DNA of 64,000 nucleotides from Octopus vulgaris. Taxonomy: Eukaryota. Positions 25,986-29,950 of this stretch are shown piece by piece. How positions within the stretch are numbered: the stretch's first letter is position 1; each line of letters opens with the position of its first letter. Where the stretch lies: assembly GCA_951406725.2 (NCBI GenBank), contig OX597816.1, positions 163,804,001 through 163,868,000 of the forward strand, read 5' to 3'. Position numbers and translations under genes: made by a program. The notes under the pieces are model-generated. The model ran no database searches. It was given only the letters and a program-made list of their open reading frames with translations, and had not been told where the DNA came from.

Positions 25986-26141
25986 AGGAGTGGCTGTGTG
26001 GTAAGTAGCTTGCTTACGAACTACATGGTTTCGGATTCAGTCCCAGCGCGTGGCACTTTGGCAAGTGTCTTCTACTATAGTCTCAGGCCAACCAAAGCCT
26101 TGTGAGTGGATTTGGTAGACGGAAACTGAAAAAATCCCGAC

Positions 26142-26186
<45 letters not shown>

Positions 26187-26390
26187 CTTGTTACCCCCAA
26201 CATCGCTTGACAGTCGATGCTGGTGTGTTTACGTCCCCGTAGCCTAGTGGTTCGGCAAAAAGAGACCGAAAGAATAAGTACTGGGCTTACAAAAGAATAA
26301 GTCCCGGGGTCGATTTGTTCGACTAAACGGCGGTGCTCCAGCATGGCCGCAGTCAAATGACAGAAACAAGTAAAAAGAATAAAAAGAAAA
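25986..26390 (+). mobile_element. SINE S1, full length
   Basis: Head, internal (TA)n and tail all present. Confidence 0.9.
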
Positions 26391-27315: not shown

Positions 27316-27351
<36 letters not shown>

Positions 27352-27573
27352 TAATCAATATAGGGTGGCAAAAAATTTCGTAGAATTTTTTTGCCACCAG
27401 CGGCCTAGTGGGAAAAAATTAAATAGTCATAGACCATTTATAAATTCAACATCAAAATCAAGGAACGGCCATAATAGGCCATTCACCAACTAGAAATAAC
27501 AGACAAAGCTTCAACCGCAAAACAACATTAATTCCGCAAACCAGGAGAAAATTTTAAAAACATTTACCCTGTA

Positions 27574-27679
27574 GTTCCTTATACGATGCACCGTTTCATC
27601 TATTGTTTAATGGTAAACCAACCTGATTAAATTAAATCAAGCTAGTCTTCCATAGGCCGATAGATTCGTCAGTAAGAAC
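27574..27679 (-). ncRNA. Type I hammerhead ribozyme, core intact (copy 1)
   Basis: GTTCTTA CTGACGA ATCTAT[...]ATAGAT GAAA CGGTGCATCG TA TAAGGAAC. Confidence 0.85.
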
Positions 27680-27806
27680 AGCCAGATCGGAGCAGATATT
27701 TCCACGAGGCACTTCTATCCCTGTCTCGGCAATATCTGACCTAAAATTTTCAAATCATCGCACTCGCGCCAAATTTATCGGCAGCAAATATACAGCCGAT
27801 CTGGCT

Positions 27807-27912
27807 GTTCTTACTGAAGAATCTATCGGCCTATGGAAGACTAGCTTGATTTAATTTAATCAGGTTGGTTTACCATTAAACAATAGATGAAACGGTGCAT
27901 CGTATAAGGAAC
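27807..27912 (+). ncRNA. Type I hammerhead ribozyme, core intact (copy 2); predicted cut after 27904
   Basis: Stem I 27807-13/27905-12; CTGAAGA 27814-20; stem II 27821-26/27883-88; GAAA 27889-92; stem III ACGG/TCGT; GUA site. Confidence 0.85.
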
Positions 27913-28290
27913 TACAGGGTAAATGTTTTTTTAATTTTCTCCTGGTTTGCGGAATTAATGTTGTTTTGCGGTTGAAGCTTTGTCTGTTATTTCTAGTGGG
28001 TGAATGGCCTATTATGGCCGTTCCTTGATTTTGATGTTGAATTTATAAATGGTCTATGACTATTTAATTTTTTCCCACTAGGCCGCTGGTGGCAAAAAAA
28101 ATTCTACGAAATTTTTTGCCACCCTATATTGATTAATTATGAATTTTCTGGTTAATTCCGTAATGGAATCGGCGGCTTATATTTGCTGCCGATAAATTTG
28201 GCGCGAGTGCGATGATTTGAAAATTTTAGGTCAGATATTGCCGAGACAGGGATAGAAGTGCCTCGTGGAAATATCTGCTCCGATCTGGCT

Positions 28291-28396
28291 GTTCTTACTG
28301 ACGAATCTATCGGCCTATGGAAGACCAGCTTGATTTAATTTAATCAGGTTGGTTTACCATTAAACAATAGATGAAACGGTGCATCGTATAAGGAAC
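28291..28396 (+). ncRNA. Type I hammerhead ribozyme, core intact (copy 3); predicted cut after 28388
   Basis: Same fold as copy 2, with CTGACGA at 28298-28304. Confidence 0.85.
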
Positions 28397-28511
28397 TACA
28401 GGGTAAATGTTTTTTTAATTTTCTCCTGGTTTGCGGAATTAATGTTGTTTTGCGGTTGAAGCTTTGTCTGTTATTTCTAGTGGGTGAATGGCCTATTATG
28501 GCCGTTCCTTG

Positions 28512-28582
<71 letters not shown>

Positions 28583-29329: not shown

Positions 29330-29732
29330 ACTCTTTTACTTGTTTCAGTCATATGACTGTAGCCATGCTGCAGCACTGCCTTTAGTCGAGCAAATCGACC
29401 CCAGGACTTTATTCTTTGTAAGCTTAGTACTTATTCTGTCGGCCCCTTTTTACCGAACTGCTAAGTTACGGGGACTTAAATACACCAGCATCGGTTGTCA
29501 AGCAATGCTGGAGGAGGACAAACACAGACACACAAACACATACACACACACATATATATATATATGTATATATACATATATACGATGGGCTTCTTTCAGT
29601 TTTCGTTTACCAAATCCACTCACAAGGCTTTCGTCGGCCCAAGGCTATAGCAGAAGACACTTGCTCAAGGTGCCCCGCAGTGGGACTGAACCCGGAACCA
29701 TGTGGTTGGTAAGCAAGCTACTTACCACACAG

Positions 29733-29787
<55 letters not shown>

Positions 29788-29950
29788 TACGATGGGCTTC
29801 TTTCAGTTTCCGTTTACCAAATCCACTCACAAGGCTTTGGTCGGCCCAAGGCTATAGCAGAAGACACTTGCTCAAGGTGCCCCGCAGTGGGACTGAACCC
29901 GGAACCATGTGGTTGGTAAGCAAGCTACTTACCACACAGCCACTCCTACA
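29330..29950 (-). mobile_element. SINE S1 with a locally duplicated head (29575-29730 and 29783-29945)
   Basis: Two near-identical head segments in tandem. Confidence 0.85.

Follow-up and report, generated by a model that had tools for sequence, protein, structure and literature searches.

The block of direct and inverted repeats at 27349-28516 of the 64-kb window (the whole stretch of Octopus vulgaris DNA analysed here) raises the question of what kind of element it is, and by which enzyme and from which template it was copied. An earlier note on this stretch described a 484-bp unit present about 1.5 times on the forward strand, preceded by an inverted copy joined to it at a CCG microhomology, all inside (TA)n, and proposed a non-LTR retrozyme with a link to Penelope-like elements (PLEs). 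That proposal is borne out by copy number, tandem units, a covarying hammerhead, the absence of an ORF and a PLE-type insertion anatomy, and we consider it likely (probability roughly 0.8) that the locus is a recent insertion of a non-autonomous, non-coding non-LTR retrozyme copied by a PLE reverse transcriptase (RT)-endonuclease.

Metazoan non-LTR retrozymes are already known, a mollusc included (Cervera and de la Pena 2020, PMC7229834). In the accessible portions of the literature, the case for how animal retrozymes move still rests on their co-occurrence with PLEs and on resemblance between pLTRs (Cervera 2020; Li 2026), their origin from PLEs has been argued from 35 genomes, mostly vertebrate (Li 2026, bioRxiv 10.64898/2026.07.22.740005), and the formation of tandem and inverted PLE insertions is named as an open question (Craig 2021, PMC8557442). 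The octopus family offers a short, ORF-free RNA with hundreds of young insertions, a strict two-start-site rule and intact candidate enzymes in the same genome, and is a compact substrate for work on trans-mobilisation, template form and dimer asymmetry.

Layout of the Element

The element lies between two stretches of its target microsatellite, (TA)16 at 27317-27348 and (TA)32 at 28517-28580, within which a target-site duplication would be indistinguishable. Counting unit positions from the cleavage site, the inverted arm (27349-27798, minus strand) is 5'-truncated at position 269 and ends 3' at what we call site B (234) against (TA)n, and the forward arm (27796-28516, plus strand; 721 nt or 1.49 units) is 5'-truncated at position 376 and ends 3' at site A (position about 128), again against (TA)n. 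The inverted arm shows 4-5 differences from the forward copies over 27349-27792 and extends to 27798 given one extra base, and the CCG that joins the 5' ends of both arms head to head is therefore 27796-27798. The forward-strand direct repeats (27796-28035 and 28280-28519, spacing 484) differ at two positions: 27818 A vs 28302 C, at the variable N7 of the hammerhead core, and 27842 T vs 28326 C, a U-G vs C-G pair in the stem II insert. The arrangement described in the earlier note was thus reproduced coordinate by coordinate, together with both of the differences that it had placed within the ribozyme.

The cleavage-to-cleavage monomer (27905-28388, plus strand) is a predicted circular RNA of 484 nt, non-coding (longest ATG frame 18 aa) and highly structured: the unit folds far better than shuffled sequences, with z scores of -5.4 (linear) and -4.3 (circular). 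A "tail" of ~105 nt (28033-28138, plus strand) separates site A (~28032-28035) from site B (~28138-28140), which we infer to be reverse-transcription start sites. Conserved hairpins stand immediately upstream of site A (28003-28022) and of site B (28088-28123), and a third, also conserved, lies at 28168-28193, all on the plus strand; the latter two had been picked out beforehand as examples of hairpin-rich sequence, and the last shows a compensatory G-C to A-U change in a sister family. Within the window, a Pfam scan of 13 frames gave no match, and neither a PLE protein remnant (RT or GIY-YIG ORF) nor a tRNA gene was found; the element also shows no flanks of LTR type.

A Hammerhead Maintained across Two Families

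A descriptor search over the full 64 kb, on either strand, returned exactly three type I hammerheads, all inside the element: one in the inverted arm (27568-27684, minus strand; CUGA at 27672, GAAA at 27597, predicted cut after 27582) and two in the forward arm (27802-27918, plus strand, with CUGAAGA at 27814, GAAA at 27889 and a predicted cut after the GUA ending at 27904; 28286-28402, plus strand, with CUGACGA at 28298, GAAA at 28373 and a predicted cut after the GUA ending at 28388). The forward arm thereby contains two complete motifs in a row in tandem units, as is usual for a non-LTR retrozyme. CUGANGA, GAAA and a UH core with three stems, stem I being open, are present in all three copies; stem I, previously drawn as a bulged helix of 7 bp, does have the bulge and is better drawn as a proximal helix of 4-5 bp, the bulge and a distal helix of 4 bp.

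The earlier note called these hammerheads intact, a word that on the predicted folds applies to the motif alone. For the window copy, the lowest predicted energy (-35.7 kcal/mol) belongs to a competing fold in which CUGA is base-paired, the hammerhead fold reaching -32.2 kcal/mol, and stem I is almost never paired in the circular ensemble. Activity of the window hammerhead is not guaranteed, because the CUGA-blocking fold is predicted to be more stable by 3.5 kcal/mol. The Rfam models suggested as a check gave no match on the window, either at gathering score or at E up to 10, probably owing to the long stem II insert; on the genome, RF00163 matched six loci, none of them the window element.

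The core pattern is intact in 74/74 main-family copies, chosen for similarity, in which stem I variants stay paired. Among 18 units (nine of the main family, nine of the sister family), 213 of 216 cells of the core-anchored stems I-III are paired, against 58-90 with slid partners, and the exchanges include A-U/G-C, U-A/A-U and G-C/U-A/A-U; the covariation across genomic copies that the earlier note had looked to is therefore present. Over the whole-unit structure there are 52 two-sided changes vs 22.7 in shuffles (none of 500 shuffles as high); counted by pairs, those that changed on both sides hardly exceed the shuffles (11 vs 8.3; 42/500 shuffles). Most of the covariation is a single split between the two subfamilies, and further changes occur inside each (L120, L238, L239, L242); among 100 listed sister matches, one stem III pair is T-A or A-T in 97 and A-A in three. 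CCGA replaces CUGA in seven of the nine sister copies, and CCGA-type core variants may still be able to cleave. The hammerhead is supported by covariation in all three stems and has been maintained across 30% divergence.

Family Size and Relatives

Searching the 2.8-Gb genome with the 484-nt unit gave 1,484 candidate places, 40 of which were scored, with full-length matches at 95-98% identity. A 19-mer spanning the cleavage site has 994 exact matches in the genome (control, 0); 81 core matches on contig C1 correspond to 39 loci, and scaling this ratio to 994 puts the family at ~480 loci as a lower bound, which supplies the copy number that the earlier note had wanted. Contigs of X1, X3 and X7 (RNA only by guess) and of X15 span all 29 bins of the unit.

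The sister family (L227:227-822; L235-L242) shares 70% identity over the whole unit, with 2,457 candidates and 243 core matches; it has a GUC site, mostly a CCGAUGA core, and the same pairing of 3' ends as the main family. A third, distant retrozyme-like family (L169:205-760, minus strand; also L188:5867-5999 and L204:3013-3323) has a unit of ~440 nt with a GUC hammerhead and stops at a site-B-like end against (TA)n. More type I hammerhead families, unrelated to these, occur at L062:6030-6454, L228:917-1211 and L150-L155, some as inverted pairs beside (TA)n. Retrozyme and PLE copies are often nested in the (TA)n tails of other PLE insertions (L101, L104, L137, L039).

Two Fixed 3' Ends and Their Strict Pairing

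We mapped arms in 72 distinct loci, comprising 22 from the 30 best unit matches, nine from a pattern search covering one stem I variant only, and 41 from the core search taken in positional order; all 39 loci of contig C1 are included. The 3' ends of the 123 arms fall at site A in 64 cases (~128-131 nt past the cleavage site), at site B in 50 (~233-236 nt past it) and elsewhere in nine. The end-class windows (116-148 for A, 226-242 for B) were fixed once the first 30 loci had been seen, and their width reflects the extension of BLAST alignments into TA; the actual end sequences are tight, and 112 of the 114 A or B ends adjoin (TA)n. More than one arm is present in 48/72 loci. The 49 head-to-head junctions comprise 41 that join an A end to a B end, none A+A, none B+B and eight with one atypical end. 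If each end were chosen independently at even odds, 41/41 A+B would have a probability of about 1e-12. The window copy follows the rule, as does the sister family, where a hand count of 19 two-strand loci among 40 gave 16 A+B, one atypical and two unreadable; across both families A+B holds in 57/57 readable cases. Three single-arm A loci (L087, L126, L147), excluded from this count, carry a site-B stub of 10-25 nt, below BLAST length.

The 5' side is irregular. Junctions show overlaps of 1-12 nt (25/49) or inserts of up to 21 nt. Breakpoints are scattered over the unit, with one of 123 at the cleavage site vs ~172 crossings of it, of which one per core-search locus is built in because those loci were selected for an intact core; the accumulation of 5' ends there that a cut linear monomer template would produce was not seen among the 123 arms. 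Arms cross the cleavage site without stopping, and the template was therefore a circle or an uncut multimer. Divergence is 0.72% within an arm and 0.92% between the arms of a locus, against 5.1% between loci, so both arms of a locus derive from the same variant.

Partial tandem copies, an inverted 5'-truncated copy, a tail at one end and a microsatellite target together constitute the insertion anatomy of PLEs. The retrozyme class and the tail at one end, as a qualitative feature, are already in print; the strict A+B signature is unusually clean for PLE-type mobilisation. This anatomy also recasts an earlier suggestion that the inverted arm would give a foldback double-stranded RNA of about 340 bp: the arms of the window element do form an inverted repeat of 342 nt at 99% identity, but the inverted arm is a by-product of insertion, as in the other multi-arm loci, and a foldback RNA from the window element would need read-through transcription.

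Template Form and Proposed Mechanism

As a mechanism, we propose that tandem copies are transcribed and that their hammerheads excise the 484-nt monomer, which a host ligase would be able to close. A PLE protein, probably a dimer, would bind the structured region around the tail, nick both (TA)n strands and prime two cDNAs, one subunit starting at site A and the other at site B on the same RNA. Each cDNA would copy back through the unit and the cleavage junction, often repeatedly, and halt at a random point, after which the two cDNA ends would be joined via microhomology or a short fill-in to give the tandem-plus-inverted shape. For coral, mussel and axolotl retrozymes, closure of the monomer by host ligase is reported in the accessible text of Cervera and de la Pena (2020, PMC7229834), and by analogy the window copy would self-cleave and circularise; release of a monomer from the window locus itself depends on a transcription start upstream of 27802. 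Reads joining 28388 to 27905, proposed earlier as a test for the circle, do not serve, as the genomic sequence of a tandem array presents the same junction letter for letter; the tandem join that we see in X1 and X15 contigs would likewise look alike in a circle and in genomic DNA.

We modestly favour a circular template: a linear array that is primed internally would lose length with every round of copying, whereas tandems are restored when a circle is copied. The alternative, which we think doubtful and yet the strongest of those considered, keeps the same PLE-driven spread and takes as template a linear multimer, left uncut and transcribed from a small number of long tandem source loci, with any circles as by-products and the ribozyme as a trimmer of transcripts. 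Arrays of seven units exist (C1:68.70 Mb) and could act as such sources; the nearest other locus (median 0.70%) is as close as units are to each other within a locus; and the main substrate used in vitro by the anole PLE was RNA that had not been cleaved, in the portions available of that study (PMC11167929). The private alleles of single loci, at sites with at least three units, cut both ways: six are shared by every unit of both arms, which is hard to reconcile with an uncut multimer, 13 occur in some units of their locus, as an uncut multimer would give, and 68 in one. A single monomer circle therefore does not account for every locus. Further weight against the multimer comes from the rare alleles, 51/179 of which are found on both arms, from loci that are <1% divergent inside yet 5% apart, which would require repeated monomer bottlenecks, and from the maintenance of the hammerhead by covariation over 30% divergence.

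Taking the favoured template together with a particular enzyme, we tentatively suggest that the self-cleaved, circular 484-nt RNA is captured by a dimer of a Hydra-clade PLE protein, the two RT sites of the dimer sitting at two fixed points of one RNA fold, each priming from one strand of the (TA)n double nick and copying the circle repeatedly, a combination that we rate somewhat below even odds. If so, A+B pairing would record in the genome an asymmetric dimer bound to one RNA molecule, the PLE tail and inversion could be explained in general by this asymmetry, and there would be direct anatomical evidence that animal retrozymes are PLE cargo recognised by structure and not by shared sequence.

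Candidate Enzymes

The genome holds two kinds of candidate, both young autonomous PLEs. Hydra-clade PLEs comprise several families (L223-L234, L188-L192; 19,794 endonuclease candidates), one of them with a 947-aa open frame that carries RWK, DKT, YRDD and CxCX5C and long Asn-rich inserts, in copies ~97% identical. Their proteins go unrecognised by a Pfam search, and a protein search for a longer homologue of the Hydra endonuclease found none; RWK, DKT and CxCX5C match the published marks of the clade (PMC8557442, accessible text). The copies carry a type I hammerhead with a long stem II insert, target (TA)n, have ends 76-121 nt apart and show A+B pairing in 4/4 distinct two-arm loci. Of the PLEs here, Hydra resembles the retrozyme element most, and we put a Hydra-clade PLE, the likeliest enzyme donor, at about even odds.

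A donor from outside the Hydra clade, above all a very young Neptune-type PLE (L061-L068, e.g. L064:744-5960), is unlikely by our estimate. It has two ORFs, the first of ~466 aa and of no known family, the second of 765 aa encoding RT-GIY-YIG with a CX4CxxC linker; a 781-codon frame is open in many of its copies, which are ~98% identical. It also targets (TA)n, has the two-end signature and shows A+B-type pairing in the one readable two-arm locus (L066), all of which would suit a donor. However, its (TA)n ends are only ~38 nt apart, and downstream of its ORF no canonical hammerhead was detected, merely a possible degenerate core, where Hydra instead has tails of 76-121 nt and long-insert hammerheads.

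An autonomous partner sharing sequence with the unit was not found by blastn at word size 7 and a profile search among 123 PLE-side loci, a small part of the candidates (of the endonuclease candidates, ~150/6,136 and ~150/19,794 were scored); the Neptune family shares no sequence with the unit at word size 7. The matches consisted of independent retrozyme insertions and a single weak case (L192, E 0.001), in which a hammerhead 3' half and retrozyme-like sequence (L192:2740-2925, minus strand) stand head to head with a 5'-truncated Hydra arm. This is possibly a mixed retrozyme/Hydra insertion, with no TA between the arms; as proof of a partner we rejected it, a single weak case with both ends site-A-like. 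As to adjacency of the unit to a PLE RT/GIY-YIG ORF, which the earlier note wanted checked, PLE protein matches occur in 1/72 loci and lie 400 nt away.

That scarcity bears on a further alternative, that the copies are 5'-truncated pLTR ends of an autonomous PLE, without an independent small-RNA life. There is a precedent: a hammerhead family beside L039, at first taken for a second retrozyme, was rejected as such when an endonuclease ORF traced upstream identified it as the 3' terminus of a Hydra PLE, and the PLE candidates scored are only a fraction of the total. In the octopus family, by contrast, what stands upstream of a unit is another unit, never an ORF, in pure repeat that attains 2.3 kb or more; 66/123 arms are longer than one unit; and these statements include inspection of all 39 core-bearing loci of contig C1. 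We regard the pLTR-end reading as improbable.

Least probable is that the tandem and inverted shape arose locally in the DNA, by slippage, unequal crossover or template switching within TA tracts, or through misassembly: the surroundings are long (TA)n, and gene conversion could give some allele sharing within a locus, but dozens of dispersed loci have the same two 3' ends, strict A+B pairing and differing 5' breakpoints, and the tandem join recurs in independent short-read contigs (X15, X1), as does the site-B/TA end (X7), so that the assembly artefact named in the earlier note as a possible refutation is largely excluded.

All that the Hydra PLE beside L039 has in common with the unit is a motif of 15 nt plus a short end rich in AT. 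The sequence TGATTTGAAAATTTT, at 28213-28227 in the window, also occurs in a Hydra pLTR upstream of its hammerhead; nearby, TTGGCGCG (28196-28204) is retained in the sister family. The two resemble CHR and E2F promoter sites, and this region may be an internal promoter.

Relation to Known Systems

The comparisons that follow draw on the accessible portions of the cited papers. Like metazoan retrozymes, the octopus element is built of tandem units that lack coding sequence and carry a single type I hammerhead apiece; low GC, dispersal in many copies, strong self-pairing and co-existing PLEs are further common features. It departs from them in its 484-nt unit (170-400 nt in PMC7229834, although 51-972 in Li 2026, bioRxiv 10.64898/2026.07.22.740005) and in the long hairpin insert that replaces loop 2. 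Two-arm (TA)n insertions with two fixed ends are unmentioned for retrozymes in those portions of PMC7229834 and Li 2026, and the failure to find partner pLTR homology here contrasts with 21/57 Xenopus families with such homology (Li 2026). In Xenopus, one of nine predicted retrozymes cleaved in vitro (Li 2026, bioRxiv 10.64898/2026.07.22.740005).

PLE insertions are described as partial tandems accompanied by an inverted copy that is truncated at its 5' end, with a 30-40 bp tail that is often one-sided, and the (TA)n bias of PLEs and an octopus Hydra family are reported in the same work (Craig 2021, PMC8557442). Like EN+ PLEs of the Hydra clade, the element combines tandem and inverted truncated copies, a tail at one end, a (TA)n target and a hammerhead upstream of the 3' ends; unlike EN+ PLEs, it lacks an ORF and its tail is ~105 nt rather than the published 30-40 nt (PMC8557442). 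Hydra copies of the same genome have a tail similar in length to that of the element, which itself has no detectable homology to the Hydra or Neptune pLTRs examined.

The closest biochemical parallel is the anole Poseidon element PAc, whose PLE protein, a predicted dimer, nicks and extends both strands from two internal RNA starts that define the tail (Frangieh 2024, PMC11167929); insertion there did not need hammerhead cleavage, and both strands used the same start sites (PMC11167929). Two internal starts downstream of a hammerhead, an AT-rich target, extension of both strands and a predicted dimer are common to both systems. PAc, however, is autonomous, and its choice of start site was strand-independent in vitro, whereas A is paired with B here. 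Chlamys PLEs such as MRC1 offer another likeness, being non-autonomous head-to-tail multicopy insertions made by PLE machinery (PMC8557442); unlike the octopus element, they as a rule have 3' sequence in common with their partner, and a hammerhead is absent from most Chlamys (PMC8557442).

No published account of a retrozyme from cephalopods, or of A+B pairing as a strict rule, came up in our literature searches, and Repbase, supplements or subscription papers may contain either; the word ribozyme is absent from the accessible main text of a recent octopus repeat annotation (PMC13282606).

In the window itself, an inverted pair of a dispersed SINE-like repeat flanks the element (26056-26327 and 29381-29943) and is separate from it, and the repeat on the right includes a 207-bp tandem duplication at 29522-29943. 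Contigs under four organism labels contain parts of the 64-kb stretch.
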